DNA of 28,800 nt from an uncultured Methanosarcinales archaeon (GCA_964535955.1 CAZHVK010000003.1:124001-152800); one strand, 5' to 3'. Numbered from the stretch's first letter, positions 4,380 through 27,586 are shown. A program made the numbers and translations. The notes: a model not told the origin generated them from the letters alone.

Positions 4380-5344
4380 ATCTTAAAAAAACATTAACAA
4401 CAACATTAACAGCTTTGGCATTATTATTTAACCCAATATCATCATCAATATCATCAACAATTTCTAAAACAGAATCTAAAACAGGTTCTTTGATGAATTT
4501 AGTAAGGCAAGCTTATGATAATAAATATGACAATCATTCTTTTTTTACCACAAATGAATACTTAGAAAATATATACAAGTCTTGTTATGAGATTCACACA
4601 AGCCACCAATATGAAGTAGATTATTATGATTTAACAAAAAAGTTAAAAAAAGACAAAAAAGGCAGGATAAAGAGGCCAATAAAAGAAACAAAAACACAGT
4701 ACATAATGAGTGCAGGAAGTTCTTCAGGCTTAAAGATAGTAGATAATGAACTTTATCTAATAACAAACCACCATGTTGTTTCTCCAGAATTTGAAGAAAT
4801 GGATGTTTATAATTTTGTTATTCCTGTTGGTCATGCTAAACTAAAAAAAACAAAAGTTTTGCTTTTTACCAACCCTAAACTAGATCCAGAAACAAAAGAA
4901 CATATTTCAGATGAAGGATTAGAATTAGAATTAGTTGCAAGTGACAAAGACCTTGACATTGCAGTTCTAAAAACAAAAAAACAAGATTATGATAAAATAA
5001 AGGATTACATAACATATGGTAATTTTGGTGACAGCAGTGATCTAAGCCCTGGAAACTGGCTTTATGCAATTGGTTATCCCAACATGTTATCAAACCAATT
5101 AGTCCAAGGTATCTACAAAGGAAATGATAATCCTCATTATCCTAATGATGATACTATCTATCATATGAGCTGCACAGTTATACCAGGTAATTCTGGTGGA
5201 CCTGTTTATGCTCTTAGAGATGGTGTTCCTGAATTAGTAGGCATTGCACGTCAGACACATGGAGCACAAGACGGCGGTGCAATAAAGATCAATCTAGTAA
5301 AAGATTTTCTTAAGAAAAATAAATTAGAGAGGTTATTAGAATGA
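4376..5344 (+). CDS. Secreted trypsin-like (S1) serine protease, no PDZ domain
   Basis: Catalytic triad motifs TNHHV, DIAVL and GNSGGP. N-terminal signal peptide. ATGA overlap with the upstream gene. Confidence 0.9.
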   Translation: MNLKKTLTTTLTALALLFNPISSSISSTISKTESKTGSLMNLVRQAYDNKYDNHSFFTTNEYLENIYKSCYEIHTSHQYEVDYYDLTKKLKKDKKGRIKRPIKETKTQYIMSAGSSSGLKIVDNELYLITNHHVVSPEFEEMDVYNFVIPVGHAKLKKTKVLLFTNPKLDPETKEHISDEGLELELVASDKDLDIAVLKTKKQDYDKIKDYITYGNFGDSSDLSPGNWLYAIGYPNMLSNQLVQGIYKGNDNPHYPNDDTIYHMSCTVIPGNSGGPVYALRDGVPELVGIARQTHGAQDGGAIKINLVKDFLKKNKLERLLE

Positions 5345-6603: not shown

Positions 6604-6743
6604 TAATGATGTTTAGGAAAAAATTGTTGTGGTTTGAATAATTTTAACTCATCCCCAAACCTGAGATTAAATTTCTATCAGACCACCACAAAAAACCTAA
6701 CAATATGAAATTCATAGTGAGGGGCTATCCTAGACATCTGCTA
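6601..6743 (+). ncRNA. Candidate structured RNA leader upstream of Lon
   Basis: Nested stems 6601-6618/6728-6743, 6624-6637/6678-6691 and 6704-6716, with three G-U wobbles that only work on the + strand. Confidence 0.4.
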
Positions 6744-6752
6744 AGATTTCAT

Positions 6753-6776
6753 CACACACACACACACACATACACA
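6753..6776 (+). repeat. (CA)9-TA-(CA)2 microsatellite
   Basis: Directly visible, 27 nt upstream of the probable Lon start. Confidence 0.9.
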
Positions 6777-6803
6777 TTTCACCAAAAAACAAGAGGGATA
6801 ATC

Positions 6804-9320: not shown

Positions 9321-10307
9321 TTACAACAACAAAAACAAACCATAACCCACAAAACAACCAATAGTGATAAATGGCATTGCAGGATAAAACTTATTTTTTC
9401 TAGTATAATAAAACAGATAACCTAGAGCAATTGTTGTACATATAGGAATTATTAAGATCTTAAGAAAACTTATCCAAAAATCAGTAACAATAATATATTT
9501 CATAATTACACCTGCAAACAATAAAGGAAATGCAATATCTCCTCCACCAAGTATTGCACTTGACACTTGTCTAGTTTTTCTTTTTTCAGTCTTTTTGTCC
9601 TTAATCTTTTTCTTATGTTTCATATTTATTTTTACATTTTTACTTATTTTGTTTTTAATTTCTTTACTTTTTTTCACAACTTTGCTGATCTTAACAATCT
9701 TTCCACTCTTCTCATCATATGGTACAAAAAAACCAGCAAAAACCTTTGATTCTGTTTGAAAATTTGCTAATTTAATCATATGTTTTGATTTCCAAACAGC
9801 ATACATATCATAAAAAGATATCAAAATTAATAATATAATCATACTCATTTGATCTAATATAGGAACAAATATCACAGCCAATCCAGCATAAATAAACAGT
9901 TCTGTCAAATTATGTACATAGGTATTTGGTTTAATAATTTTAAAATAACCTAATACTAAAGAAATCAAAAATGCAATGAGGGCACTCATAAAAGTAGCTA
10001 AAGCTACTGTCAAACACATAACAATAGCTAAATAAAACCATGCTTTCCAAAATGACATTAATTTAAATTTAATCAAAATAAGTAATAAACTTGTTCCAAG
10101 CAAAATTCCACCAATAATATAAATCCATGACCATGACTCATCAACTTCAGGTCTTTCAGCACCACCTGGTAATTCAACAAACTCAGCTTTTCCAGTCTCA
10201 GCACTCTTTTCAAAATCAATATTCTGACTAATAATATACAAACCCAATATTTGTGAAACTAAGAAAAATATGATTAAGATTGTTGTTAGTTTGATAGGAT
10301 GTTTCAT
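9321..10307 (-). CDS. Presenilin/signal peptide peptidase family (GxGD) intramembrane aspartyl protease
   Basis: Multi-TM protein with FYDMYAVW, LGGGD and YPAMPF (PAL-like) motifs. Confidence 0.93.
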   Translation of the reverse strand: MKHPIKLTTILIIFFLVSQILGLYIISQNIDFEKSAETGKAEFVELPGGAERPEVDESWSWIYIIGGILLGTSLLLILIKFKLMSFWKAWFYLAIVMCLTVALATFMSALIAFLISLVLGYFKIIKPNTYVHNLTELFIYAGLAVIFVPILDQMSMIILLILISFYDMYAVWKSKHMIKLANFQTESKVFAGFFVPYDEKSGKIVKISKVVKKSKEIKNKISKNVKINMKHKKKIKDKKTEKRKTRQVSSAILGGGDIAFPLLFAGVIMKYIIVTDFWISFLKILIIPICTTIALGYLFYYTRKNKFYPAMPFITIGCFVGYGLFLLL

Positions 10308-12903: not shown

Positions 12904-13905
12904 CTATTGTAATTTCTCAATCTCTTTATCTAAATCTTTGATTTCTTTATCAAGATTGACATTAGTAAAAACAAGACTTGCATTAAATTCTAACCTGTCA
13001 AACATATCATTTTTCTTAGCACGGCCAATAAATTTAGAAATTGTTCCTAATAATTTATTCTTTTCATCAATAAAAGCATTAGGATCATCTTTATACATAA
13101 GCATTTTATTCTCATCGATTTCTAATAATTTCAAAGCTTGGTTTCTAAAGCAAGTAACACGAATAGTTTCGCTTCCATCATCTAGGTGTAAGTTCACAAG
13201 ATAACCATAATTTGGTTGTACAGATCCATGTGTTGGGCACATATAATTGCCTTCAGTAAATTTAGACCTTTTACTACATTGAGGACAAATTTCATAAAAT
13301 CTAGGGTCATAAACCTGTACAATAGTACCTAATAATTCAATATTTTGATCACCATCTTGAAGATCAACAATCTTTTTTTTATTAGATGTAAATGTTTTAA
13401 CTTCTCCAACACTTTCTCCTTCTGGATTTACAATAACTTGAGAATTATCATTTAAATGAATTTCAACACGATTATTATTTTCTTTTGCATAGCCTGATTT
13501 TATTTTAACAACATCACCTTCTTTAAATTTTTTTAGATGTTCAGTCATAGCATGCCATGCAGTAACTCTTACACTACCTGTTTCATCAGCAATTATAAAT
13601 GAACCTACTTTTCCTTTATGGTCTCCTGTATCAAATTCATTAATATTAAAAACTCTTTGCACTTTCCCAACTGTTTCTACATTTCTCATTCCAGCTAAAA
13701 TATTCTTTATTTGTAATTTACCACTAATTTCTTCAAATAGTTTCACACCTAATTTATTTGCAATTATATGTGCAGCACCTTCTTTTGAGATATATCCAGC
13801 TAATGCTTGCATTTTCTCATCAATCATTTTATTAATTTCTTCTATAGAAAGATTAGTTTTACCTTTTATTTTATCAATAATTTCATTTATTGGCATTTTT
13901 ATCAT
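12904..13905 (-). CDS. rpa: Replication protein A (OB folds plus zinc finger)
   Basis: IADETGSVRVTAW and LDDGSETIRVTCF OB motifs; CPQC...CPTH zinc finger. Confidence 0.92.
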   Translation of the reverse strand: MIKMPINEIIDKIKGKTNLSIEEINKMIDEKMQALAGYISKEGAAHIIANKLGVKLFEEISGKLQIKNILAGMRNVETVGKVQRVFNINEFDTGDHKGKVGSFIIADETGSVRVTAWHAMTEHLKKFKEGDVVKIKSGYAKENNNRVEIHLNDNSQVIVNPEGESVGEVKTFTSNKKKIVDLQDGDQNIELLGTIVQVYDPRFYEICPQCSKRSKFTEGNYMCPTHGSVQPNYGYLVNLHLDDGSETIRVTCFRNQALKLLEIDENKMLMYKDDPNAFIDEKNKLLGTISKFIGRAKKNDMFDRLEFNASLVFTNVNLDKEIKDLDKEIEKLQ

Positions 13906-14104: not shown

Positions 14105-16003
14105 TTATGATACTACAATAGATTCAATTTGTCCTTCTACAATCTCTAATTTATTCTCAAACAAATCTTCAGCAATAATAGTATATTTATGTACTCCTGT
14201 TGGTAAAGGGCCATCTAAATAAGAATTTTCATTTTTATTAGCAGAATATATTCTCACATCATTTCTATAGATATGATATTTTTCAACATCTTTTATTTGT
14301 TTTTCTTCTAAATTATTCCAATTAATTCTAACTTGTTTTTCAATGGCTGTTAACTTGAATTCAACTTTAGGTGGAGCAGTATTATCAGGTATAAATAATG
14401 CAAAATAAATATTTGGTTTTTCACCAAACGCAAATTGTGTATTTGTATTATAGCAAAGATTAATTTTTCTATGCTTGTAAAAGTCATCAGAAATATCATT
14501 GACATTATCATTATTATCATTATCACCACTATTACATATTCCTATTTCTATCCTGTCACCAAACTCACCCTTACTAATATCTTCAACACATTTCTTAATA
14601 TCTTTTTGATCAACATCACAATCCAAAACAATCTTTTTAGAAAATTCAACACTTTTTCTATAATCATCAAAATCATAATCAATTATTATATTAAATGAAG
14701 GTTTTATTGAATATTCACCTATTTCTACAACAGTTTCTGAACTTTGTGATCCTATATTTTCAGTAATTTCAGTATATCCTGCTCTACCTATAGGATCTTC
14801 ACCAACAAGATCACCATATTCACCAAATTCATTTCCACCAATCTCCATCAACATTAATCTAACACATTCATCAGCAAGCCTAGTAGATTTTTTTGATATT
14901 TTTCCTTTATATTTACTTTTACAGCTTCCAGAATCAGATGTTAATGCTTCTACTATATCATTTGAAAAATAACAAAGCGGGCTCACACCTTTGTTTTTCG
15001 AAACTAAATCATCTATTTGTTTAGAAATCTTGAAAACAAGACCAAGATCATATATTATCTCTCCAGTACCACCAATAAGACCAACAGGATCACCCTCACT
15101 TATCTCTTTTCCTTGAGAAATTCCTTCAGAAACTTTAGAAAGGTGTGCATATAATGTAAAAAGATCCACATCGTGTTTGATCACAACATAATTACCATAC
15201 AAAGAAGAACACGTTCTTCCTTGCACACATTTTTTTTCTATTCTATCAACAACCCCATTTGCAACAGATTTCACTTCTGTATCAATATTTGCACTTATTT
15301 CTATTCCATTATTTTGCATTCCTTGTTGTCCATAAGAACCAAAACAAGAAGCAAGATTTTTACTGCTTGGCACAGGCCATGTCTTAAATGTTGTTTTTTC
15401 ATTTTTTATTTCATCTAATCCAATCTTTTCTTTTTTCACACCACCTTTTAAATCAATAACAATTGAATTTATTGCATCACCCTTTATTTTTAATTTTTTA
15501 TTTTTTTTATCATAAAAATCCTTTTTTTCTTCTTCTTTAATTTCTATTTTATGATTATTCAATTCAAACTCATTTTTTTCTAAATATTTATTTAGATTAG
15601 GAATATAGTAATCATTAAAATTACCAATAAATATACTCTTTTCATCAAAAGGATAACATTCCATAGTTTTGTGCTGATCATTTTCATCTATCTTTGTCCA
15701 CATATTTATATCCTGAAAATTACCGCATTCAGAATTCTTTAAACCACCCTTCTTATTCATTTCTAAAATACCTTTATAACCTGCATATTCACCTGATTTA
15801 TCAATATTATAAAGTATATTTTCACCTGTTTGGTAAGTTTTTATAAGATTAATTTGTCTTTCACCTACTTTTTTATCAAGTTTACCTTCTTTATTATTGA
15901 TGATGACTAATGCTGAGATCAGAGCAGCTACCACTATCAAGACTATCACTATGTTATAGATCAATGCTTTTTTGTTTTTGTTTCTTACTTTTCTTATATT
16001 CAT
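14105..16003 (-). CDS. Class III signal peptide protein with degenerate M23/LytM domain and C-terminal Fn3-like domain
   Basis: KNKKA plus hydrophobic helix; WPV...GIEI...VKSVANGVV...YGNYVVIKH...TLYAHLS...VGLIGGTG; C-terminal DNTAPP...INW...YHIYRN...YTIIAED. Confidence 0.85.
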   Translation of the reverse strand: MNIRKVRNKNKKALIYNIVIVLIVVAALISALVIINNKEGKLDKKVGERQINLIKTYQTGENILYNIDKSGEYAGYKGILEMNKKGGLKNSECGNFQDINMWTKIDENDQHKTMECYPFDEKSIFIGNFNDYYIPNLNKYLEKNEFELNNHKIEIKEEEKKDFYDKKNKKLKIKGDAINSIVIDLKGGVKKEKIGLDEIKNEKTTFKTWPVPSSKNLASCFGSYGQQGMQNNGIEISANIDTEVKSVANGVVDRIEKKCVQGRTCSSLYGNYVVIKHDVDLFTLYAHLSKVSEGISQGKEISEGDPVGLIGGTGEIIYDLGLVFKISKQIDDLVSKNKGVSPLCYFSNDIVEALTSDSGSCKSKYKGKISKKSTRLADECVRLMLMEIGGNEFGEYGDLVGEDPIGRAGYTEITENIGSQSSETVVEIGEYSIKPSFNIIIDYDFDDYRKSVEFSKKIVLDCDVDQKDIKKCVEDISKGEFGDRIEIGICNSGDNDNNDNVNDISDDFYKHRKINLCYNTNTQFAFGEKPNIYFALFIPDNTAPPKVEFKLTAIEKQVRINWNNLEEKQIKDVEKYHIYRNDVRIYSANKNENSYLDGPLPTGVHKYTIIAEDLFENKLEIVEGQIESIVVS

Positions 16004-16632
16004 TTTTTACAAATCCACACAATAACTTTCTTATCAGACAATGATTTGTCATATAAATCTAATACTTGACCTAAACATTTACTTCCAGGCACATTTAAAG
16101 GTTTGATAATACTTATATCTACATCAATAGGCATCTTTATGCCGTCTATTATAAGGTGAAAATCTTTATCATCTTTTGACTTTATTTTCTTGATTTCTTC
16201 ATTAGAAAAACGACTAACTCTTAGCCATATATTATGATCTTCATCATCTTGTTTTTTTTCAAACATTTTATTAACAATATTTTTTAAAAATTCACATTTT
16301 TCATTATTTCTTAAATAATTATCAATAGAATGATCAGCACACCTGTATGTTTTTTTTTCATTATTTTCTTGATCAATTATTTCTTCCTCTAGCATGACCA
16401 CCATATCATGCATTGTCATGCTTGTTTCTTCATAAACAATAGGTGTTTTTAGAAAACCTAACAAGATATTATTTCCTTCAATCTCCTCAACCTCAGAACC
16501 AATAACATCTTCTTTTAGTTCTGCTTTTATTGTAAATATCAAAAAAAACACAATCACAACTAAAACAAAAGCCAGGTATGAATAAAAATCTACCAATGGT
16601 CCGCCTATTGTAGCTTTTTTACTCTTTCTCAT
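16000..16632 (-). CDS. Class III signal peptide (pilin-like) protein
   Basis: MRKSKKA-TIGGPLVDFYSYLAFVLVVIVFF; AGGAG SD supports start 16632. Confidence 0.75.
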   Translation of the reverse strand: MRKSKKATIGGPLVDFYSYLAFVLVVIVFFLIFTIKAELKEDVIGSEVEEIEGNNILLGFLKTPIVYEETSMTMHDMVVMLEEEIIDQENNEKKTYRCADHSIDNYLRNNEKCEFLKNIVNKMFEKKQDDEDHNIWLRVSRFSNEEIKKIKSKDDKDFHLIIDGIKMPIDVDISIIKPLNVPGSKCLGQVLDLYDKSLSDKKVIVWICKK

Positions 16633-16648
16633 TCTCCTACACATTAGT

Positions 16649-17251
16649 TTATTCATTTGGCACAGCAACCTCTATTTTAATTTTCCCAGGATAAAAATCA
16701 TTATTATACTTAAAAACAGTATCAAACTCTCTTTCTACAACATAAGAGCCTCTTTCCAGATCTTTTTGTCCATACAATAGGTTAAAGAAATTTTCATTAA
16801 AATATATTTCTCTTTCTCCTTTTTTTTGTTCTATTTTTTTACCCTGGGTTTCTTCTTTTTTTTCATCTTTTTCTTTTTTCTCTTCTTCAAACATATCAGA
16901 ATAATAAGTTATTCTTGCACCCATCCTATTTGTTTTTTCACCAAACCTTTCACCAAAACCTAAATTCTTATTAATTTCTTTTTCAATTTTTTCAAGATCA
17001 TTAATATCAATCACTCCAGGATAAACCCTTCCAATTTCTTCATCATAATAAGAAATTCCATTTTTTGAATACATTAAAACAAAATCATAGACATTTGTTT
17101 CAGCTTGTTCAGTATTAACTTTTGTAACAATAAACCCTCTTATGAGAGCTAGTACTACAAATAATGCAATTATTGTAAAAAATATTCTAGGAATATAATA
17201 CATTACCATCTGGCTAATCTGTGCTTTTTTATTTTTTTTAATTATTTTCAT
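16649..17251 (-). CDS. Class III signal peptide (pilin-like) protein
   Basis: KKNKKA-QISQMVMYYIPRIFFTIIALFVVL. Confidence 0.8.
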   Translation of the reverse strand: MKIIKKNKKAQISQMVMYYIPRIFFTIIALFVVLALIRGFIVTKVNTEQAETNVYDFVLMYSKNGISYYDEEIGRVYPGVIDINDLEKIEKEINKNLGFGERFGEKTNRMGARITYYSDMFEEEKKEKDEKKEETQGKKIEQKKGEREIYFNENFFNLLYGQKDLERGSYVVEREFDTVFKYNNDFYPGKIKIEVAVPNE

Positions 17252-17284
17252 TATACTTGTTATTTTCTTTATTTTATTTTTGTT

Positions 17285-17707
17285 TTAACTTATTCCTTCT
17301 TTTATTTCTAACTTATTTTCTTTATTTGAAAATATTATTTTTTGTGGTTCTTTGATATCTGCATCGAAACTTCCATCATGAGACAAATATGGAAATACTT
17401 TTTTATTGCCTGTTTTTTCAGAAACAAACACATTACTATCTAACCATACAAATTCAAATTTATGCAGTACTGTATCACCAGAATACATAGCATATTCAAA
17501 TTCAATATCTTGTGGAGAATTTTCAATAATAGATGTTGTTAATGCTAAGTCTCTTGACAAATAATTTCTTTCAAACAAAGTATTGTCTTTTATTGATATT
17601 AAGTAATATGTTAATCCAAGCCCCATGATTCCAACCAAGATAATTTCTAATATGACAAACCAAACTAGGTAAGTTGTTGCTTTTTTATAAAATCCTCTTT
17701 TTTTCAT
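17285..17707 (-). CDS. Class III signal peptide (pilin-like) protein
   Basis: MKKRGFYKKA-TTYLVWFVILEIILVG; ATG 17707 lies about 30 nt downstream of a TATA tract. Confidence 0.75.
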   Translation of the reverse strand: MKKRGFYKKATTYLVWFVILEIILVGIMGLGLTYYLISIKDNTLFERNYLSRDLALTTSIIENSPQDIEFEYAMYSGDTVLHKFEFVWLDSNVFVSEKTGNKKVFPYLSHDGSFDADIKEPQKIIFSNKENKLEIKEGIS

Positions 17708-17759
17708 GTTATTACTATGATTTAATATAATTTTATATATATATGTTTTGTTTTTTATG

Positions 17760-17874
17760 TGTTGGTACAAGCCGCCAGTTTGGCAAGTGAGCCAAAATTA
17801 GATTCGTAAGACTGCCTTGGTACTCTATTTATTATTTTTGAAATTAGAGTAGGCGAACGAGGGTTGTACCAACA
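17760..17874. ncRNA. Structured non-coding element, copy 1 (RNA or ssDNA/MITE-like)
   Basis: 11-bp terminal inverted repeat; shares AGTGAGCCAA, TAAGACT, TTGGT and AGGCGAACG plus covarying stems with 24861-24972. Confidence 0.6.
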
Positions 17875-17939
17875 TTTGTTTTTTATGTGTACCAAAACAC
17901 ATAAATCTTTAAATACAAAATTTTATTCCAAACACTAAA

Positions 17940-20573
17940 ATGTCAAACAAACTCCTAAACACATCATTATCATTACTAATGTCATGTTTTTTATTCTTTA
18001 TTCCAACAAAAGCAAATTCACAATCAATATCAGGCCAGGTCTTTGCAAACACATCAACAACTCAACAACCTGATTATAAACAGGCACATTCTCTTGAGAT
18101 GAAATTAATATCAAAACAAAACAAAGAAAAAATAATAAAAACAGATGAAAATGGCTGTTTTAATATTGATTTTGATTCTGTACATGATATTGAATACTCA
18201 ATCTCTCATAAAGGTGGTGTAATAAAAGGAGAAAATTACAAACCAGGAGTAATATCAATTGACTTAAGCAAACTAGGTGTTGACAAGCAGTATGAATTCA
18301 CAGTCACATATGACAAAGATGATTTTGACAACAAAAGAGACATTTTTCAACACATCTTCTTATATCCACAACAACACTGGGACAGTGGAAATCTTTGGTT
18401 TACACTAACTTGTAGAAAAAAACCAGACCAAAATAAAAAACCATTGTTACTAATTGGTGGTTTTCACAATGAAAACAAAGAATTTGGAAATTTTCATGAG
18501 ATATTTCCATCACAAGAATATGATATTTATGAATTAAATTACCCTTATGATCAAGATATACCTTTGAGTTCTTGGTTATTAAGAGATACTCTGGATTTTC
18601 TTAAACAAGTATATGGTTCAGACATAGATGTTGTGACACACAGCAAGGGTGGACTACTACCAAGAACTCTTATTCAAAACAAAGCATTGTTTCAGAAAAA
18701 CCTAGAAACATACTTAACAGACAACATAATCATTCCTTATAATCATAACATAAGAAACTTAGTAATGCTTGCACCTCCTAATTTTGGAAGTTACCAAGCA
18801 TACAGGATTGTTTTTGAAAAAGGTTTTGCATTTTTAGAAGAACACGCACCGCAGAGAGGTTATAAATCTAATTCACCAGGATCAAAGAGATTAGCTAAAG
18901 GAAACAAATTTTTATTTGACCTTTTTATAGATTATATAACTAATCATGAACAATACACAAAGATTCCTACAATGATCATAGCAGGAAATAATGACAAACT
19001 CGCATTTGGCTCAACATTGGTTCCAGAAACAAAATCAAGACAAGGTGATGGTTTTGTATCTTTATTAAGTGCACATCTTCCTTTTATTGAAAACACATTT
19101 GTTATTAATGAGAATCATGCTACAATAAGAACAAATAGTACTGATGGAAAATCTTTAACAAAAGAAGAATGTAATTATTTTTTACAACCAATTGCTTATT
19201 TTTTAAGAGATAAGATAGAATTTATAAGAAAACTCAAACAATTTTCAAAAACAGGATTCAGGCAATATGATCCTAAAGATATGAATGGTGGAATATTATT
19301 AAAAACAGACACAATAGACAACTATGTATTATCATTAGACAATGTTATAGATGACTCTGACTTCTTTTTTTTAGAAGATCCAGGAGAAAGATTAAGATTA
19401 TCAGAACATACTGTTAACACAAATCCAGATATTTATGCAGAACCACCAATTGAACTTGATCCTAATTCAAAAAATCTGGTTTATTTTATATTCAACAGAG
19501 CACATCTCAAAGATAGATTAAAATCTAAAGACAAACAAAAACCAATATCTGGTTTGCCTCCTGGTGAATATTTTTTACTAACATATGAAAAAACAAGAGA
19601 CTGGAATGCAACATTAAAATTTTGGTCAGGAAAACCAAAAACAATAATAAAAATCAAACAGAATCTTGGTAAGGTTAAAATCTTTCCAGGCCAGTTCACA
19701 GTCAGTTCTCTAAAAAACAACAAACTAAAAAATATTTTTGAACAAGAGGTTAAGGTAATACAACCACAACAAATAGCACAAGATTATTTACAAAAGGCAA
19801 AATCAGCAAGAACACTTGATGAAAAAATAGAACTTTGTAATACTTCAATTGACATTGATCCTGATTTCTCAGACCCTTATCTTCACTTAGGAGCAATCTA
19901 TTGGAAAGAAAAAAATGATCCTGAAAAAGCACTAGAATGTTTTAGAAAACATAATGAATTATGTACTGATGCTGAAACAAAAGCTAAAGTAGAAAAGTAT
20001 ATTGGATTTTTAGAACAAGAAAAAGAGACAAAACATGAAAATATAATTATTTGTATAAAAAATATTGATTCACTTTATGTAGCCACTACTCGTGCTATAG
20101 CATTGGAATTTAATTCAAAATATGACTTTGTAAGACAAGGGTTTAGTTCTCTCTTAACAAATAAACTTATTAGATCTATCCCAAGATGTTCTGAAAATGG
20201 AACTTATAAATATGATTCTTCAAAAGGAAAAGAATTAAAATGTACTGTTTATTGTTCAAAACATGGTTATTTAGAAAATATTCTTGAAAAACATGGTTTT
20301 GATTTAGACACACTAAAAAGAGAACAAGTGTATAAACAAATACAAACAACGCAATCTCTTGATAAAAAAATAAGATTATATGAAAGAGCAATCTATTTAG
20401 ATCATGATTTTCCAGATTCTTATCTTCATCTTGGTGCCATCTATTGGAAAGAAAAAAATAATCCTAAAAAAGCATTAGAATATTTTAGAAAACATAATGA
20501 ATTAAGTGCAGACAATGAAAAAAAGAGCAAAGTGCAAAGATATATAAATTTGTTAGAACAAGAAATTAGATAA
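17940..20573 (+). CDS. Secreted alpha/beta hydrolase (PGAP1/lipase-like) with duplicated C-terminal TPR modules
   Basis: Sec signal peptide; LLLIGGF, VTHSKGGL nucleophile elbow, LAPPNFGS, GDGFVS, NHA; two YLHLGAIYWKEKN TPR units. Confidence 0.85.
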   Translation: MSNKLLNTSLSLLMSCFLFFIPTKANSQSISGQVFANTSTTQQPDYKQAHSLEMKLISKQNKEKIIKTDENGCFNIDFDSVHDIEYSISHKGGVIKGENYKPGVISIDLSKLGVDKQYEFTVTYDKDDFDNKRDIFQHIFLYPQQHWDSGNLWFTLTCRKKPDQNKKPLLLIGGFHNENKEFGNFHEIFPSQEYDIYELNYPYDQDIPLSSWLLRDTLDFLKQVYGSDIDVVTHSKGGLLPRTLIQNKALFQKNLETYLTDNIIIPYNHNIRNLVMLAPPNFGSYQAYRIVFEKGFAFLEEHAPQRGYKSNSPGSKRLAKGNKFLFDLFIDYITNHEQYTKIPTMIIAGNNDKLAFGSTLVPETKSRQGDGFVSLLSAHLPFIENTFVINENHATIRTNSTDGKSLTKEECNYFLQPIAYFLRDKIEFIRKLKQFSKTGFRQYDPKDMNGGILLKTDTIDNYVLSLDNVIDDSDFFFLEDPGERLRLSEHTVNTNPDIYAEPPIELDPNSKNLVYFIFNRAHLKDRLKSKDKQKPISGLPPGEYFLLTYEKTRDWNATLKFWSGKPKTIIKIKQNLGKVKIFPGQFTVSSLKNNKLKNIFEQEVKVIQPQQIAQDYLQKAKSARTLDEKIELCNTSIDIDPDFSDPYLHLGAIYWKEKNDPEKALECFRKHNELCTDAETKAKVEKYIGFLEQEKETKHENIIICIKNIDSLYVATTRAIALEFNSKYDFVRQGFSSLLTNKLIRSIPRCSENGTYKYDSSKGKELKCTVYCSKHGYLENILEKHGFDLDTLKREQVYKQIQTTQSLDKKIRLYERAIYLDHDFPDSYLHLGAIYWKEKNNPKKALEYFRKHNELSADNEKKSKVQRYINLLEQEIR
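19815..20564 (+). repeat. Internal duplication of a ~205-bp TPR module (about 19815-20021 and 20358-20564)
   Basis: Near-identical translations (LDEKI...YLHLGAIYWKEKNDPEKALECFRKHNEL...LEQE vs LDKKI...YLHLGAIYWKEKNNPKKALEYFRKHNEL...LEQE) with visible DNA similarity. Confidence 0.9.
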
Positions 20574-20578
20574 AAATA

Positions 20579-21118
20579 TTAACCTGGTCTATCACTAGGA
20601 TGTACAGGCTCAGATAAATCCCTTTTCTTCATTACTCCACCACTTCTATCATCATTTTTAGGATTCACACATCTTCCGGGTTTACCATCATCAATTTCTT
20701 TTGCAATAAGTTTTGCACATGCTTCACTATACTTACCTAAATCTCCTTTTTCAGGATCATCACTCCTTCCATCATCAGGTTCACAACCCCTTGCAATCTT
20801 ATCCTTGTCTTCATCTTTTAATGTATTATGGCAAATGGATACACCATCTGAATCTTCATTAGTACACACACAATTATCACAATCATCAGGAAACTTATCA
20901 CCATCCACATCAATATAATCTCCTGTCTGCGGCAGGTCTGCTTTTTGTTTACAGAATTCATACTGTGCTATATCAATGAACCTGCCAGTTTCTCTTCCAA
21001 ATAGATTAAATCCTCTATTCTGCATCCATATTATGGTAAATGCCACTATAAACAGGATTAATATTGTTATGAGTATTGTAACAACCATTGTTGCTGCTTT
21101 TTTGTTCTTTTGCATCAT
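20579..21118 (-). CDS. Class III signal peptide protein with TSP3-like DxDxD Ca-binding motifs
   Basis: KNKKA-ATMVV; DVDGDKFPDDCDNCVC and DEDKDKIARGCE. Confidence 0.8.
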   Translation of the reverse strand: MMQKNKKAATMVVTILITILILFIVAFTIIWMQNRGFNLFGRETGRFIDIAQYEFCKQKADLPQTGDYIDVDGDKFPDDCDNCVCTNEDSDGVSICHNTLKDEDKDKIARGCEPDDGRSDDPEKGDLGKYSEACAKLIAKEIDDGKPGRCVNPKNDDRSGGVMKKRDLSEPVHPSDRPG

Positions 21119-21252
21119 ATAACTATCTTTTAACACATTTATCTATATAAACCTATTTATTTTTATATATTCATTTAATAGACATAAATAATAAAAAACA
21201 ACAATATTTAAATATCTAAAAATAAACCCTAAACCAATACAGAGATGATATT

Positions 21253-22149
21253 ATGCTTGAGAATATACTAAACAATTGGAAAGGAAGATTATGTTTAACT
21301 ATTGCAACTCTCGGTCTAGCAACCACTTTATGTTATGATGTTGCCAAAGCAGATTCTGGCGATGTTTTGGATGGCCTTGATCAATGGATTGAACAAAAAC
21401 AAACACAAGAACAACAATCACCAGAAGAACAAGTACAAGCAATGATACGCATGAATCTTGATCTGCTTGATTCTGGCCAGTATGATGAATTAGTTCATAA
21501 TTTTTTTTATATTAATAAAGATAATTTGTTTCTTAAAGAATATGGTTCTACTATGGATGAGGTTGTAAAAAATCTTGAAAACAATTTTAAAGGAAATATA
21601 ACTGAAAGTAGAAAAATGTTATCCCCTCTCTTAGATATAAAACCTGAAATAAAAAGAGATAATAATCTTGCAATTTTGTATAATGAAGAAATGAGATCAT
21701 ATTTTGTTTTTGAAAGAATTGAAGATAATTGGTATTTTATAGGTGCAGAGGACGATTATAATACTATAAAACTAATGAGTACAATCCAAGAACAAAGAAC
21801 AATGAAAAAAGAAATAAGGGAGTCAATAGATTATTCTCTTAGATTATTTAATCAAGGAAAATATGAGAAATTTGTTGATTCTCTTTTTAATTATAAAGCT
21901 CAACAAGAATTTGAATCATCTCTTGATAGAAGTAGAACTTCTAAAACAGAATTTACACAAAAAAGGTCAAGTTTTATTAATTTTTTTAAAAGTGGAACTA
22001 AGAACACAAAAAAATATATTCTCATTTTTCAAAATTTTTTAAAGACAGAGCCAGAATTTCGTGAAAATAAAGCAAAACTAAATGATGGTAAAGGAGTTGA
22101 ATTTTATTTTATTAAACAAGGAGATAAATGGTATGCAATAATGGATTGA
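21253..22149 (+). CDS. Secreted hypothetical protein with two internal repeat domains
   Basis: Signal peptide ending AKA-D. Two halves share L.L...G.Y...V...F, KPEIKRDNNLA/EPEFRENKA and F.RIEDNWY/F.KQGDKWY. Confidence 0.8.
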   Translation: MLENILNNWKGRLCLTIATLGLATTLCYDVAKADSGDVLDGLDQWIEQKQTQEQQSPEEQVQAMIRMNLDLLDSGQYDELVHNFFYINKDNLFLKEYGSTMDEVVKNLENNFKGNITESRKMLSPLLDIKPEIKRDNNLAILYNEEMRSYFVFERIEDNWYFIGAEDDYNTIKLMSTIQEQRTMKKEIRESIDYSLRLFNQGKYEKFVDSLFNYKAQQEFESSLDRSRTSKTEFTQKRSSFINFFKSGTKNTKKYILIFQNFLKTEPEFRENKAKLNDGKGVEFYFIKQGDKWYAIMD

Positions 22150-22191
22150 TACATATAATTTAACAATATCTAATCTTTCTAATTATAACCT

Positions 22192-23298
22192 TTATATTGT
22201 TCTGCAATTATTAGTTGCTCCCCTCCACCATTGCCATTTACATTCATCCACTTTATTACAAGGATCAATAAAACACATTTCTTTATCATCACCATAATCT
22301 TCACATCTATTAATCTTATTACAATCTACACAATAATTATCACTAAATAATCCAATACCATCATAAGTCCATCCACCACAATTCAATCCACATTCATTAT
22401 ATTCACATACATACTCTGTTTTATAATCCTTGCATTTCTTTATATCTTTACAATCATCCACTTCTTCAACTATTTCTTCACCTTGTCCTCTTTTAAAACA
22501 TCCTTCTTCATTATTCCATCTACAATTTCCATATTTACAAGGATCTTTTTCACATACATATTTTCTTTTAGGATCATAATGTTTACAATCTTTATTAACA
22601 GGGCAATTCATACATGATAACATAATTCCCCCAGAATAATGTGGAACACAATTATCATAAATATTGCATGTATTATCTAAACAATCAACTTCATTTGTTC
22701 CATAATCATTACATTTGTCTATTTTACTACACTTTTCTAAAAATTCTTGTTTTTCTTCTTGTCTTCTTTCTTGTTCTGCTAATCTTTGTTCAATAGCTTG
22801 CCTTCCTTCTTCACTTTCTTCATCATCATCTTCTTCTTCTTCTTCTTCTTCACTTCTTGTCATTCCTTCTTCTTCAGGATAACATCTTGCATCTTTGCCT
22901 TGATCAAGCCTTTTTGAAATTTGTATACTACATTTTTTATTATAAACACCACTACTTAAAGAATCATCTAAGTCACATTCATCAGCAATCTTATCTTTAT
23001 CTTCATCATCTTTTAGATTGTCACACCCAGAATCTTGAGAACAAACACAATTATCACAATCATCAGGAAATCCATCCTCATCAATATCAAGATATTCATC
23101 TGTTCCAAGCAACTTCCCTTTTTCTTTGCAATAATTATATTCTTGTTCATTAAGTGATCTTCTAGTTTGTTGTGTAAATTTATCTAACCAATTATTTTGT
23201 ATAAAAACTATAGAAAAAGCAACAACAAGTAATATGACAACTACAATAATTATTCTTACAACCATTGTTGCAGCTTTTTTATTTTTAAGAAATAACAT
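22192..23298 (-). CDS. Class III signal peptide protein with TSP3-like motifs, acidic linker and four Cys-rich repeats
   Basis: Paralog of 20579-21118 over its first ~140 aa; poly-E/D linker; C-x2-(I/V)-x2-C-x-(D/H)Y...C-x3-4-C repeats. Confidence 0.85.
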   Translation of the reverse strand: MLFLKNKKAATMVVRIIIVVVILLVVAFSIVFIQNNWLDKFTQQTRRSLNEQEYNYCKEKGKLLGTDEYLDIDEDGFPDDCDNCVCSQDSGCDNLKDDEDKDKIADECDLDDSLSSGVYNKKCSIQISKRLDQGKDARCYPEEEGMTRSEEEEEEEDDDEESEEGRQAIEQRLAEQERRQEEKQEFLEKCSKIDKCNDYGTNEVDCLDNTCNIYDNCVPHYSGGIMLSCMNCPVNKDCKHYDPKRKYVCEKDPCKYGNCRWNNEEGCFKRGQGEEIVEEVDDCKDIKKCKDYKTEYVCEYNECGLNCGGWTYDGIGLFSDNYCVDCNKINRCEDYGDDKEMCFIDPCNKVDECKWQWWRGATNNCRTI

Positions 23299-23299
23299 A

Positions 23300-23563
23300 T
23301 TAACTAATTGTTTTACAACATTCTTTTTTATTTTCTCCTTCTACTTCAGGACAACTTAATAATGTCATCAGAGTACCACCATCTTCTTTACATTTCCCAG
23401 ATTCAACACATTCATAGCCTTTACTTTGACAATCTTCAAGTCCTGTGTTGAACCAGTCAATCTTTCCAGTAAATATCATGATCATCACAACCAAAACAAT
23501 CAATAGAAGAACAGCAATTATGATTGTTCTTAATGACAATCCTTGAGCCTTTTTATTTATCAT
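23300..23563 (-). CDS. Small pilin-like protein with six-Cys head
   Basis: MINKKA-QGLSLRTIIIAVLLLIVLVV; AGGTGA SD; ends in CC. Confidence 0.85.
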   Translation of the reverse strand: MINKKAQGLSLRTIIIAVLLLIVLVVMIMIFTGKIDWFNTGLEDCQSKGYECVESGKCKEDGGTLMTLLSCPEVEGENKKECCKTIS

Positions 23564-23581
23564 ATTAATCACCTTTTTTAA

Positions 23582-24661
23582 TTAATTTATCAGTTTATCA
23601 TAATCTCTTTTTTTAATGCAAACATCTTTATTCATGAACTCTGTTAATTTTTGTTTTGCTTGTTCATCCCAATCATTAATAGGATATTTTGAAGAATACA
23701 CACCTTTTTTACAAGAATGAACAATATCTTTACTATATCTATATTCCACTGTTACACTTAGTTTTCCAATTAATTTATTCATCTCTCTTTTATCAACACC
23801 TTGTTCATCACCAGCAGTTATCAATCTTTCAACACAATTATCAAAAAATATTTTCATTCCCCATGGACTTTGTTGTCTGAATTCAAAATCAATCAAATTA
23901 AGATAAGTATCTACCATACTATCATAATTATTTTGTTCAGAATACAATTTTCCAAGTTCTTCTAAAGTACCTCTATAATCAGCTAATCTATCTTCACTAC
24001 CTGTACCTGAACCAAATATTTCTTCATAAAGTTTGATTGCATCTTGTTTATCATCTCCCTCATCTCTTCTAGATAAAACATCAGCTTTCAAAACCTTTAG
24101 ATATAATATGAATGATTGATGTGCATTTACACCTTTTGCTTGTTCTATTTTAAGATATTTTTCAATTTCCTTTAATACATTACCATAATCTCCTTGAATC
24201 TTCATCGCTTCAATCAATTCCAAAACATTCAACCTTTTATAACCAGGATCTTCAGTTGTTTCAATTAAATCCTCAATATATCCTTCACCTTTTTTAGGAT
24301 CAATTTCAGTTAAGATTCTGCCATGATTATATCTCATATTGTCTTTTTCAAATTTCATACCCTTAAATTCATCAGGAAAACATTTTTCAAACCCTTTAAA
24401 AAAACTTTCATCTGATTTATATATTACAACATTCCTATCTATCTTTTCTCTATATATTTCTTTGTACTCACTCAATGTTATACCTGTTGCATCACATTTT
24501 TTATCACTCAAAGAATCAACCCAATTTTTAAACACATTAAATCCAGGTGTTATACCTTTACTTATAACACCAATTAAAACAGTAAATAAGAGTAATAATA
24601 GAATAATGATTAAAACAATTACTTTTATACCAACTCCTTTTTTATTTATTCTTTTTCTCAT
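23582..24661 (-). CDS. Class III signal peptide protein with TPR-like helical domain
   Basis: INKKG-VGIKVIVLIIILLLLL; DAIKLYEEI and LEELGKLYSEQNNYDSMVDTY TPR-like helices. Confidence 0.8.
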   Translation of the reverse strand: MRKRINKKGVGIKVIVLIIILLLLLFTVLIGVISKGITPGFNVFKNWVDSLSDKKCDATGITLSEYKEIYREKIDRNVVIYKSDESFFKGFEKCFPDEFKGMKFEKDNMRYNHGRILTEIDPKKGEGYIEDLIETTEDPGYKRLNVLELIEAMKIQGDYGNVLKEIEKYLKIEQAKGVNAHQSFILYLKVLKADVLSRRDEGDDKQDAIKLYEEIFGSGTGSEDRLADYRGTLEELGKLYSEQNNYDSMVDTYLNLIDFEFRQQSPWGMKIFFDNCVERLITAGDEQGVDKREMNKLIGKLSVTVEYRYSKDIVHSCKKGVYSSKYPINDWDEQAKQKLTEFMNKDVCIKKRDYDKLIN

Positions 24662-24664
24662 GAT

Positions 24665-24823
24665 CTAAAGACCAGATATATCTACATTTCCAAAATAATT
24701 TTTAGCCCATATCAAAAATAAGACAATCACACCTAATAATGCCAATAATAAAACTACCTTTATCAATAACTGCATAGACATTTCAAATCCTTTTTTGTTT
24801 TTAAAAAATCTCATTATTTTCAT
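24665..24823 (-). CDS. Minimal pilin-like peptide, 52 aa
   Basis: Manual translation MKIMRFFKNKKG-FEMSMQLLIKVVLLLALLGVIVLFLIWAKNYFGNVDISGL; stops 3 nt before the next start. Confidence 0.8.
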   Translation of the reverse strand: MKIMRFFKNKKGFEMSMQLLIKVVLLLALLGVIVLFLIWAKNYFGNVDISGL

Positions 24824-24860
24824 ATTAATACCTTTATTTATTTAAATGTTTATATATATT

Positions 24861-24972
24861 TATGTGCATAGTGCCTGTAAGGCCAGTGAGCCAATTTACA
24901 TATCATAAGACTACATTTGGTGCTTCATTTACTTTTGTAGCATTTGAAGCAGGCGAACGTGCTATGCACATA
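24861..24972. ncRNA. Structured non-coding element, copy 2
   Basis: TATGTGCATAG/CTATGCACATA 11-bp terminal inverted repeat; same conserved blocks and stems as 17760-17874. Confidence 0.6.
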
Positions 24973-24977
24973 TGATT

Positions 24978-25874
24978 TTAAACAGCTTTTGTCACAATAT
25001 ACTTACATCCTAACTGATTTTGCACAGTATCCTTATCATACGGCCTTAACATTACAAAAGCAGCCCATTCAAAATCTTCTTGTGTAAATTTAGATGCTAC
25101 ATATGTCCAAGTAATACCAATCACTGCTAATGGGATTGTAACCTTTGCACTAACAATTCCCAAAGCAAGAAGAGCAATACTCCCACCTGTTGTTGCTCCC
25201 CCACCACCATAATATTTTATTTTTCTAACAAAATCATTCCATTTATCTTTTCCTTTTACATAAACAAACATAACACTATATTCTTTACTCTTTGAAGTAT
25301 CAATTGTTCCAATAAAATTTTGATTTTCATTATTATATTTTAAAAATTCAGAACCATCTGTTTTAAATCCTGTTAAATATCCATAATATGTTGGTATTTT
25401 CTTGTCTTTGTATTTATAATGCTCACCACTTGGAATCTTTTTTACAGCCAAGTATTCACCAAAGTCATCTATAACTAAATCATCATCTTCAAATGTTATA
25501 TGACTGCAAACACCACAATAAATATTTGGATTTTCAAACAATTCTAAAGTTCCTTCTCCATACTGGTCCCAGCAATCATACATAGATTCAGCAATGATTT
25601 CTTTTGCTTTATCATTTTCTTTTTTTTCAATAGTAATCAGATCTGTTTTACAATTAGGTGGATTTTCCTTTGCATCTATTTTTAATTTTTTAGCTAACTT
25701 AGTTCCAAAATTCCCATAAACACTAGCTTTGCATATCTGTTTATCAGTATTTTCATCAATCTCATTAAATGTATTTGCATAAAAAACACCAAATATAAAC
25801 AACACAATCAACAATATTACCATAGTTATGATTAATTCCATTGACATGCTTTTTTTATTATTCTTAGAAAACAT
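24978..25874 (-). CDS. Class III signal peptide-like protein with conserved Cys domain
   Basis: NNKKS-MSMELIITMVILL; CKASV...C...DCWDQYGEG...YCGVCS; internal hydrophobic Gly-rich segment. Confidence 0.8.
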   Translation of the reverse strand: MFSKNNKKSMSMELIITMVILLIVLFIFGVFYANTFNEIDENTDKQICKASVYGNFGTKLAKKLKIDAKENPPNCKTDLITIEKKENDKAKEIIAESMYDCWDQYGEGTLELFENPNIYCGVCSHITFEDDDLVIDDFGEYLAVKKIPSGEHYKYKDKKIPTYYGYLTGFKTDGSEFLKYNNENQNFIGTIDTSKSKEYSVMFVYVKGKDKWNDFVRKIKYYGGGGATTGGSIALLALGIVSAKVTIPLAVIGITWTYVASKFTQEDFEWAAFVMLRPYDKDTVQNQLGCKYIVTKAV

Positions 25875-26705
25875 TTAATCCACCCATGGTTCCCAAAGAA
25901 GCTGGTCACAGTAATTTCCTGTTTCTCTTCTATCTCTTGTATCTTTTTTATAATTATCATCCATTTTCTGCAATCCTGATTCATGAACAATAAATACATC
26001 TTGGAATTCTTGTTTTTCATATTTATCCTTCGTTTTTTCAGCATCCTTTGGCAAAATTATATCTCCTATTCCTTGTGCTCCTTCAACAATCCAAGACAAT
26101 GCTTTTCTTCTAAACACTACTATATAATTATTTTCATTATTTTCACTAGATTTTTCTATTTTTTGTATTGTTTTTCCATCTTTTCCAAATACACCTGAAA
26201 ATGAGGAATATGTTTCATATTTTAAATATTCATTAAGTTTTTTCTTAGGATTATGTTTTGAATCTCTGAATTCTAATCTACTATTTAATTCAGTCAATTC
26301 AATATTATTATTAAGTGTAAATTCAGAACACACAATACAATAGGTTTGATGAGCAGCTTCAGAACCGTGTACTTTAAAATCACCAGCACCCATCTTATAC
26401 CAGCAATCATCTAATTGTTTTAGAATAGAATCAATATTATTTCCTGTTGTATCTTTTGCCTCTGCTTTGTAAGCAATAGCAGGGCATTGTATAGTTGTTT
26501 CATCTATTATTGATTTACCTATATTCTCAACTTCAGAATTAATCATCACACTAAACCTGCATGTATCAATATCAGCTCTTTTTCTTGTCAAGTTAGCAAA
26601 CCTGACTCCAGCATATATCAATATTCCGCCTGCGATCAATGCAATTATCAATATGATTAACACAGACATTGCCATTGTTTTTTTATTAAATGTTTTTTTA
26701 ATCAT
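25875..26705 (-). CDS. Class III signal peptide-like protein, paralog of adjacent 298-aa gene
   Basis: FNKKT-MAMSVLIILIIAL; CRFSV...C...DCWYKMGAG...YCIVCS. Confidence 0.8.
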   Translation of the reverse strand: MIKKTFNKKTMAMSVLIILIIALIAGGILIYAGVRFANLTRKRADIDTCRFSVMINSEVENIGKSIIDETTIQCPAIAYKAEAKDTTGNNIDSILKQLDDCWYKMGAGDFKVHGSEAAHQTYCIVCSEFTLNNNIELTELNSRLEFRDSKHNPKKKLNEYLKYETYSSFSGVFGKDGKTIQKIEKSSENNENNYIVVFRRKALSWIVEGAQGIGDIILPKDAEKTKDKYEKQEFQDVFIVHESGLQKMDDNYKKDTRDRRETGNYCDQLLWEPWVD

Positions 26706-26709
26706 CTTT

Positions 26710-26832
26710 TTATACAAACAATTTATTTTTCAAAGCAATAAACAAACCTATCAAAACAGCAAAAATAAACAGAATCAATATTATCCTAACCAATACTTTT
26801 GGTGTAGGATATTTATACCCTCTTTTATTCAT
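26710..26832 (-). CDS. Minimal pilin-like peptide, 40 aa
   Basis: Manual translation MNKRG-YKYPTPKVLVRIILILFIFAVLIGLFIALKNKLFV; TATA tracts upstream; stops 4 nt before the next start. Confidence 0.7.
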   Translation of the reverse strand: MNKRGYKYPTPKVLVRIILILFIFAVLIGLFIALKNKLFV

Positions 26833-26942
26833 AGATTTATACATATATATAGATTAGAATTATGGTATATATAAATCTTTTGTAGAAAGATTTATGCTTA
26901 AAAATTCTCAGAATTTTTATTGTATAAAGTTAGTGGTGAATT

Positions 26943-27293
26943 TTAATCACAACAAGATAATCCTACTCTGCATTTCCTATCTTTATTACCAGTTATTGGT
27001 TGAGATTTTTTCTTTTCTTGCAATATACATTTTTTTCTACATGTTCCCTTATTTGTTGAAATATCTCCACTTTCAGTTGTATAATCACAACCCTCAATAT
27101 TTTCACCAATAGTACCAAACCCGAACTGTTCAGTATCACCAACATCTTCAGCCTGTTCTCCCCACAGACCCAACTTATTAGCAAAAACAGCAATAAGAAC
27201 AACCAAAACAACCAAAGCTAACACAGCTATTATTATTGTTCTGATTGACATACCTTGTGCTTTTTTATTAAAAAGATTTATCATTTTCATCAA
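26943..27293 (-). CDS. Small pilin-like protein with six-Cys head
   Basis: FNKKA-QGMSIRTIIIAVLALVVLVV; ends in SCCD; ATGA overlap with upstream paralog. Confidence 0.85.
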   Translation of the reverse strand: MMKMINLFNKKAQGMSIRTIIIAVLALVVLVVLIAVFANKLGLWGEQAEDVGDTEQFGFGTIGENIEGCDYTTESGDISTNKGTCRKKCILQEKKKSQPITGNKDRKCRVGLSCCD

Positions 27294-27586
27294 ATATTTT
27301 CGTTTTTCTGTTCACCAACAGGAATACAACATATAGGTCTGTCTTCTCCAGAATCTTTTTCACATGAAGTCTTTGTTAATACAGAATTAAGTGCACCTTT
27401 TTGTTTACATTCTAAAATATTAGCAACACAAGTACCACCTTTTTCAGTACAATCTTCTATTTTTTCACTCCATGGACCAATTTTTCCAACAAATACAGCA
27501 ATTAACACAACCAATACAACCAAAGCAATAGCAGCTATGATTATAGTTGTAACAGAAATTCCTTGAGCTTTTTTATGTTTAAACAT
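27290..27586 (-). CDS. Small pilin-like protein with six-Cys head
   Basis: MFKHKKA-QGISVTTIIIAAIALVVLVV; GAGGTGA SD; CTEKGGTC...ICC. Confidence 0.85.
   Translation of the reverse strand: MFKHKKAQGISVTTIIIAAIALVVLVVLIAVFVGKIGPWSEKIEDCTEKGGTCVANILECKQKGALNSVLTKTSCEKDSGEDRPICCIPVGEQKNENI

Follow-up and report, generated by a model that had tools for sequence, protein, structure and literature searches.

Introduction

In the passages of PMC4858521 and PMC3875500 that we draw on, clade 1 of the archaeal type IV filaments (T4F), EppA and the pilins with Q+1 and E+5 (DUF361) are defined. A survey of Nanobdellati (Sivabalasarma and Albers 2026, PMC13705601), in the parts cited here, counts T4F cores in 2942 genomes and system 1 pilins in 1990, and describes the pilins as scattered. 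Four other papers infer bacterial partners from GH23 genes (PMC8204110, PMC9723730, PMC10936187, PMC11537232), and in the passages of them available to us the word 'pili' is absent from all four. Bacterial hosts of the Woesearchaeales have thus far been suggested only from scattered transglycosylase genes. Here we describe a row of pilin-like genes at positions 14105-27586 of a stretch of 28,800 nucleotides (hereafter the window) from the genome of an uncultured archaeon recorded as a member of the Methanosarcinales (GCA_964535955.1, CAZHVK010000003.1:124001-152800), in which an original prediction had seen a modular library of surface adhesins and effectors.

The row is a Woesearchaeales-wide operon and not a local library. 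Its last gene, F1, joins a conserved pilin-like scaffold to an inserted domain that in many relatives belongs to a peptidoglycan-acting family. On balance we lean slightly towards reading the products of the operon as minor or tip pilins of a type IV filament that resembles Epd pili and would target bacterial walls, by binding alone in this genus. Our literature searches, which did not extend to subscription papers, to supplements S4/S5 of PMC13705601 or to supplement S2 of PMC12352652, found no paper on this operon or on pilins that carry hydrolases in these archaea; the operon is real, order-wide and apparently undescribed in print.

Results

The row consists of 14 minus-strand open reading frames (ORFs), 12 of them of 87-632 amino acids (aa) and two micro-ORFs of 40 and 49 aa. 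Under a relaxed test, all 14 begin with a K(K/R)[A/G/S/T] leader followed by a hydrophobic helix, against 52 of the 1293 genes of at least 85 aa elsewhere in the genome (4%), so that the basic leader and helix first reported for every minus-strand gene are confirmed. When called genes within the array are considered, 11 of 11 on the minus strand pass, a count that omits the two micro-ORFs (below the 85-aa cut) and the gene at 27290 (overlap filter). The leader ends in [KR][KR][GA] in 12 of the 14 and in KKS and KKT in the remaining two, and 346 of 384 members of the array families in relatives pass a similar test. Neighbouring genes abut or overlap, except at three gaps (110, 163 and 33 bases) and where two plus-strand genes, at 17940-20573 and at 21253-22149, stand between them; these two total 3.5 kb and both fail the leader test. 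The 14 co-oriented pilin-like genes of the original prediction are therefore present, but their row is broken. In the direction of transcription of the row, and down to the neighbouring RPA gene, the features are as follows.

27290..27586, minus strand: six-Cys mini-pilin-like protein, 98 aa, leader KKA followed by Q; paralogue of the 23300 and 26943 genes, with homologues in relatives
26943..27284, minus strand: six-Cys mini-pilin-like protein, 113 aa, KKA followed by Q
26710..26832, minus strand: micro-pilin-like ORF, 40 aa, leader and helix only, before the F0 pair; position conserved
25875..26705, minus strand: F0a, conserved pilin-like, 276 aa, six Cys, KKT leader
24978..25874, minus strand: F0b, conserved pilin-like, 298 aa, six Cys, KKS leader; match in 30 of 41 genomes
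24665..24814, minus strand: micro-pilin-like ORF, 49 aa, after the F0 pair; position conserved
23582..24661, minus strand: variable-slot pilin-like, 359 aa, helical, weak TPR signal; no BLAST match among the relatives compared
23300..23563, minus strand: six-Cys mini-pilin-like protein, 87 aa, KKA followed by Q
22192..23298, minus strand: pilin-like, 368 aa, DxDxDG (TSP3-like) motifs, acidic linker, 32 Cys
21253..22149, plus strand: gene of unknown family, 298 aa, without class III leader, interrupting the row; same-place homologue in one genus relative
20579..21115, minus strand: pilin-like, 178 aa; duplicate of the N-terminal part of 22192-23298 (46% identity over 148 aa)
17940..20573, plus strand: alpha/beta-hydrolase, lipase-like, with TPR tail, without class III leader; genus-specific insertion
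17285..17707, minus strand: F3, pilin-like, 140 aa, without Amidase_3-like domain
16649..17251, minus strand: F4, conserved pilin-like, 200 aa, KKA followed by Q; confident model with N-terminal helix and alpha/beta head
16000..16632, minus strand: F11, conserved pilin-like, 210 aa
14105..16003, minus strand: F1, terminal pilin-like, 632 aa, with scaffold N-half (aa 1-190), M23 insert, C-half and Fn3-like tail
15023..15313, minus strand: M23-fold insert in F1 (aa 231-327), without the HxxxD and HxH zinc ligands
14432..14725, minus strand: F1 scaffold C-half (aa 427-524); directly after the N-half in insert-free relatives
14165..14386, minus strand: Fn3-like tail of F1 (aa 540-613), E 1.3e-4
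12904..13905, minus strand: RPA gene, conserved neighbour downstream; YdjM-family and radA genes come next

Word-based homologue searches returned just 2 and 4 proteins, and for the F1 homologue of one genome of the same order the source gives Candidatus Woesearchaeota as the organism. Of the 201 genomes of the order, 172 are matched by a profile of the F1 N-half, nearly always once (the 172 include five unpublished genomes, on which no other claim rests), as are 118 of the 151 genomes of the phylum. The 23 matches of the profile in other orders of the class have open frames of 150-292 aa, which leaves no room for an enzyme insert, and the weak ones may be paralogues. Around matches to F0b, the 298-aa gene, we gathered twenty wide loci of 15-20 kb, in which the order is an upstream block (F2, F10, F12, F9), six-Cys mini-proteins, a micro-ORF, the F0 pair, a second micro-ORF, variable genes, F6, F3, F4, F11 and F1, then RPA, the YdjM gene and radA. 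By a loose test, 19 of the 20 hold 9-20 co-oriented leader-bearing genes (L029 is broken up), and at least one micro-ORF stands beside the F0 genes in 19 of the 20. Upstream of F1 in 75 loci, with contig ends scored as misses, F4 is found in 67, F3 in 62 and F11 in 55. Gene order is thus conserved across the Woesearchaeales, in line with the synteny check proposed for this locus, and the diverse modular library gives way to a fixed-order operon with two or three variable slots. Amplification of a local paralogue library was rejected as well, since paralogues within the array are limited to the six-Cys trio, the F0 pair and the TSP3-like pair. In the genome under study, the upstream block lies about 100 kb off on the same contig and F6 is on contig C9. 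The segment C3:22908-39241 of this genome (G000; L031, L032) holds the upstream block, a surface protein of 3476 aa with 121 Cys, and further class III genes.

The content of F1 was followed in 60 more loci, one per family, taken from the listed F1-profile matches with several contig-end ones skipped; 59 of them gave an F1. Pfam assigns a peptidoglycan-acting family to 32 of these 59 (M23 in 11, SLT in 13, NlpC/P60 in 3, M15/VanY in 3, 3D in 2, Amidase_2 in 2, glucosaminidase in 1 and YkuD in 1, some F1 holding two or three domains), and the sole other Pfam families in them are TPM and Fn3; the first locus set contributed GDSL hydrolases and one C39-like domain. With profiles seeded from the Pfam hits, 47 of 76 F1 show a peptidoglycan-acting domain, 37 of 66 F3 show an Amidase_3-like one, and 62 of 75 loci have at least one such domain; the same profiles find four such genes among the approximately 1300 of the window's genome. 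Among 44 proteins that hold both scaffold halves, 25 have the domain between the halves, 4 have it after both, and about 14 have adjacent halves. In 15 cases the C-half belongs to a protein that did not score as F1, usually the gene that follows. F1 is a split scaffold with one insertion site. Catalytic motifs are retained by most payloads of F1, both M23 motifs in 16 of 21 and the SLT Glu in 21 of 24. Mapped onto a tree of RPA from 44 loci, payload type requires 25 changes against a shuffled mean of 26.8, and 36 of 200 shuffles gave a value as low; on a tree with 3 of 41 branches well supported, and with 26 of 70 labelled loci lacking RPA, this distribution is weakly consistent with repeated swapping.

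Three relatives deserve a mention on their own. L046:2521-6528 (minus strand) encodes an F1 of 1336 aa with M23, SLT and L,D-transpeptidase (YkuD) domains together. At L075:106-5316 (minus strand), after F1, a 1737-aa gene combines a metallophosphoesterase, a GH3 glycosidase, a phosphodiester glycosidase and the F1 C-half. In a third relative, Lgt, the bacterial-type prolipoprotein diacylglyceryl transferase, follows F1 directly (L078:3085-3852, minus strand).

It could be argued that such an apparatus holds and digests dead bacterial wall, as a scavenger of necromass, rather than engaging a living host or prey. The slot seems to accept whatever chemistry cuts peptidoglycan, which is what bulk digestion would predict, and a passage of PMC11537232 proposes dead-cell peptidoglycan as food for Pacearchaeota. 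Nevertheless, an enzyme encoded once and anchored to an elaborate, conserved scaffold is poorly suited to a bulk substrate, and a catalytically dead M23 kept across a genus, described next, would better fit recognition; we consider necromass scavenging improbable.

In the window itself the M23 domain is unmistakable as a fold (PF01551, 57 bits against a cut-off of 28.7, E 2e-15), in line with what had been seen at first, but both zinc-ligand motifs are absent: Asn and Glu replace the first His and Asp, and there is no HxH. Both motifs are gone in three relatives of the genus too, through different substitutions, so that 4 of 4 genus members lack the zinc ligands; the M23 of one unrelated genome also lacks both. 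F3 is a protein of 135-146 aa without amidase in the three genus members examined. The M23 fold is nonetheless kept among genus genomes whose F1 are about 40-50% identical, which suggests that a binding role has been retained. The argument for a bacterial target therefore rests on relatives, because the window M23 lacks its ligands and F3 its amidase. The original prediction had based that target on the peptidoglycan-related domain plus the lipase-like gene. The inserts of relatives support a bacterial target far better than that prediction could; the lipase half of the argument does not stand, for the lipase-like gene at 17940-20573 is encoded opposite to the row, lacks a class III leader and is almost restricted to the genus (matches in 4 of 4 genus genomes and in only 2 of 57 others), and we rejected it as a pilin payload. 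Its Ser, Asp and His are retained in three genus members.

Elsewhere in the genome, two proteins of 1125 and 270 aa bear transglycosylase domains, both with the Glu motif. The first is part of the segment C3:11078-19428 (L030), where a class III gene, the 1125-aa protein with its terminal transglycosylase domain and three consecutive lipoprotein-like genes are found. C16:14843-15328 encodes a short stand-alone M23 protein with a C-terminal HxH motif and no signal peptide.

These observations bear on the idea that this genus no longer targets peptidoglycan, its M23 being a relic or binding some other surface, and its lipase marking a turn to attack on membrane lipids or to a different partner. 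The loss of M23 ligands in all four genus members, the absence of the amidase in the three examined and the near-restriction of the lipase-like gene to the genus all speak for such a change. On the other hand, the genome keeps its two Glu-motif transglycosylases and a second M23 with HxH, and the lipase has no class III leader. Moreover, an ester hydrolase suits the ester lipids of bacteria and not the ether lipids of archaea. We find a change of target about as hard to accept as the scavenging of dead wall.

The other payloads named at first fare unevenly. The TSP3-like DxDxDG motifs and the six-Cys domains are visible in the sequence but have no significant Pfam match (27290-27586 shows a sub-cut-off defensin-like match, E 0.003), the TPR-like helices of 23582-24661 reach TPR_7 at E 0.0026, under the cut-off, and Fn3 is supported solely by a profile built from the PF00041 regions of relatives, at the E value listed above. 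No array member matches a pilin family of Pfam or NCBIfam, and the scan of the array scaffolds against these two collections, which bears on a likeness to KilL/M/N or TadE/F/G, gave no family match.

The genome (1.49 Mb, rated 100% complete, 31 contigs) encodes all core machine genes of an archaeal T4F. One A24 prepilin peptidase is found on C21, a protein of 433 aa with A24 and Arc_PepC domains and both aspartate motifs, which exceeds the 230-position FlaK model in length; a VirB11/TadA/FlaI-like ATPase (T2SSE) is divided between contigs C15 and C14 (their ends share 55 bases), and two adjacent T2SSF platform genes lie beside it (C14:498-1292 and C14:1292-2323). Candidate major pilins with Q+1 and E+5 are unlinked genes on C9 and C11, and reach PF04021 (DUF361) at E 2.6e-4, under the cut-off. 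Because of the peptidase, the ATPase and the two platform genes, assembly in trans is possible: the machine genes invoked at first are indeed elsewhere in the genome, including the peptidase and the ATPase whose absence had been named as fatal to the idea, and incorporation of the array products into a pilus is a prediction only. Family searches of the window found no A24 peptidase, T2SSE ATPase or T2SSF, in agreement with the original prediction, but the window does hold a presenilin-type GxGD intramembrane aspartyl protease directly after radA (9321-10307, minus strand; PF06550 over the cut-off, NF041679 below). It was set aside as a leader-processing enzyme, given that an A24 peptidase exists. 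An archaellum locus was likewise rejected, a PF01917 search of the whole genome having found no archaellin. In one of the 20 wide loci (L021), the row is immediately preceded, on its own strand, by the ATPase and both platform genes. In the present genome, the stretch behind its own ATPase and platform pair (C14:3007-15941, L033) codes for a protein with collagen repeats and for Cys-rich proteins, 654 and 3311 aa long.

The machine genes bear on a more sober alternative, in which the array proteins would be membrane-anchored surface subunits, bindosome-like or forming a short pseudopilus, that display wall-acting domains without an extended pilus. Class III leaders occur on substrate-binding proteins too, as part of PMC13705601 states, and the heads, at 200-1300 aa, are bulky for a filament. 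To this must be added that E+5 is not conserved in the array families, of which F3 alone has it among its common residues (9 of 60), that Q+1 is found in a minority of their members, and that two leaders end in S or T. Against anchors alone stand the full machine and the Q+1/E+5 candidate major pilins of this genome, the alignment of machine and row in L021, and the fixed-place ORFs of 40-50 aa that are nothing but a helix, together with the six-Cys mini-proteins, which would suit filament subunits better than ligand binders. We therefore regard surface anchoring without a pilus as unlikely, though the strongest of the alternatives considered.

Structure prediction gave models for two conserved subunits. 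The F1 N-half is modelled as a 75-residue N-terminal helix with antiparallel strands (predicted local distance difference test, pLDDT, 80) and F4 as a helix with an alpha/beta head (pLDDT 89). Foldseek comparison of both with the PDB found nothing at E <= 0.001. In a wide fold search their best Z scores, 4.8 and 6.0 respectively, do not stand out and no pilin head is listed; a 40-residue helix matches a Pyrobaculum pilin (Z 4.2, root-mean-square deviation 1.9), and F4 retrieves Cache/PAS-like sensor domains at Z 5-6. As far as these models go, the fold searches neither show nor exclude a pilin fold. Profile searches of solved structures yielded nothing significant, the best being the N-terminus of an archaellin at E 0.59, and Pfam run on all F4 and F11 members found no shared family. 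In the ESM Atlas, the neighbours of F4 are unnamed Woesearchaeota clusters, with DUF7287/DUF7288 at 0.82/0.77 as leads only, and F0b has no usable match. Complex prediction of the F1 N-half with F3, F4 and F11 scored 0.39 against 0.10 for the best control, with at least 56% of contacts shared between runs and partner pLDDT of at least 38, which gives weak support, a score in this range being more often wrong than right unless the complex is likely beforehand. For calibration, 116 of 157 solved pairs and 2 of 215 mismatched pairs reach the mark, and at 0.60 or under stand only 18 of the 157 solved pairs and both mismatches.

Downstream of F1, the RPA gene is found within three genes in 46 of the 75 loci, is on the same strand in the window, and has radA close behind. 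This link would be explained by a pilus for the uptake of DNA or nucleotides coupled to lysis of a neighbour, for which the fratricide of competent streptococci offers an analogy. No DNA-uptake channel or DNA-binding pilin was seen, neither having been searched for; F1 and RPA are separated by a gap of 199 bases, and a conserved neighbourhood alone is no proof of joint function. We give this proposal very little credence.

Other parts of the window are briefly recorded. A gene at 1800-4379 (plus strand) encodes an 859-aa protein with coiled-coil stretches, metallophosphoesterase-like motifs recognized by eye and a low-complexity N/K tail, without significant family match; a trypsin-like protease gene follows it (4376-5344), and 6705-9320 (plus strand) encodes a LonB/LonC-like AAA protease of 871 aa. 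A sigma-70 promoter scan stayed at chance level, the sigma-70 model being unsuited to an archaeon. Eight sequencing runs from 2 studies hold the DNA, with no RNA holder among those listed.

Discussion

If the array proteins are minor or tip pilins, their leaders would be cut by the A24 peptidase, and the ATPase and platform proteins would assemble them with unlinked major pilins, probably those encoded on C9 and C11. F3, F4, F11 and F1 would form a tip complex capping the filament, from which F1 and F3 present a wall-acting domain to a bacterial partner. In this genus the M23-bearing tip would bind and not cut, and wall cutting, if any, would be left to the separately encoded transglycosylases. 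Several points weigh against this proposal. Processing, filament and bacterial partner are deduced from genes. Although the relaxed leader test is passed throughout, a strict FlaFind-type pattern at -2..+2, made for lineages other than this one, matches only 4 of the 14 leaders; the want of a conserved E+5 and the two S/T endings count in the same direction. The machine genes are unlinked to the row in 19 of the 20 wide loci, and the score of the F1 complex lies where errors prevail unless the complex is likely beforehand. As to the payloads, the array of this genome is without an intact peptidoglycan hydrolase, 29 of 76 F1 have no detected payload (about seven of these with hydrolase-like motifs by eye), and only 10 of 40 amidase-like domains hold all motifs.

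More tentatively, and with rather less confidence than we place in the tip pilins themselves, most Woesearchaeales may possess one type IV filament whose tip subunit is a socket for peptidoglycan hydrolases of at least eight unrelated families; the order would then consist of ectoparasites or predators of bacteria, and the payload of each genome, or its disarmed form, would record how it engages its host. A single-copy, order-wide scaffold with one site refilled by unrelated domains that share only their peptidoglycan substrate is a much stronger genomic argument for bacterial partners than those made hitherto. F1 could serve as a marker for imaging or host capture, its inserts can be assayed individually, and the window offers a natural disarmed version, useful for separating binding from cutting.

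Among known systems, the Epd pilus of Methanococcus maripaludis, or archaeal T4F system 1 (clade 1, Makarova 2016, PMC4858521), is one of the closest to what this genome encodes. Both have a single ATPase, a pair of platform genes, a long A24 peptidase, numerous class III proteins and major-pilin candidates outside the locus. The array departs from it in the lack of a conserved E+5 and of any Pfam or NCBIfam pilin family, in a machine that is usually unlinked, and in subunits with peptidoglycan-acting inserts. Because they do not have the E+5 feature, we do not file the array members as Epd pilins, although they may plausibly belong among pilins at large. Where the relevant passages of PMC13705601 describe scattered Nanobdellati pilins, the array is an ordered operon across the order.

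With respect to the enzymes, the fam00969 murein transglycosylases of Woesearchaeota and Pacearchaeota (Castelle 2021, PMC8204110; Vigneron 2022, PMC9723730) concern the same organisms and lead to the same inference of a bacterial partner. They have a median of 1947 aa and a SignalP peptide in 79%, only GH23 is noted for them, and the passages concerned mention no pilins, operon or interchangeable hydrolases. Archaeal peptidoglycan hydrolases that kill bacteria (Strock 2025, PMC12352652) likewise include M23 and other wall hydrolases and are prominent in Nanoarchaeota; as far as the main text goes, from which 'pili' is absent, they are Sec/Tat-secreted and bear wall-binding domains. The degenerate LytM/M23 proteins EnvC, NlpD and ActS have, like the window F1, an M23 fold without zinc ligands. 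Matches of the window M23 to their models are weak and far under the cut-off. These proteins activate the cell's own amidases, whereas our M23 is inserted in a pilin-like scaffold of an archaeon without such a wall.

The Kil/Tad pilus tips of Myxococcus (Herrou 2025, PMC12075869), in the sections on which this comparison is based, are alike in their minor-pilin clusters, predicted tip complexes, variable distal domains, disulfides and contact with bacterial prey. They belong to a bacterial Tad system with a secretin and a needleless type III secretion system. By analogy of function, rather than by any demonstrated link in sequence or fold, they are the closest working parallel to the operon described here, with one difference in how variety is deployed: Myxococcus keeps several paralogous tips in each genome, whereas F1 is single-copy and varies between genomes.

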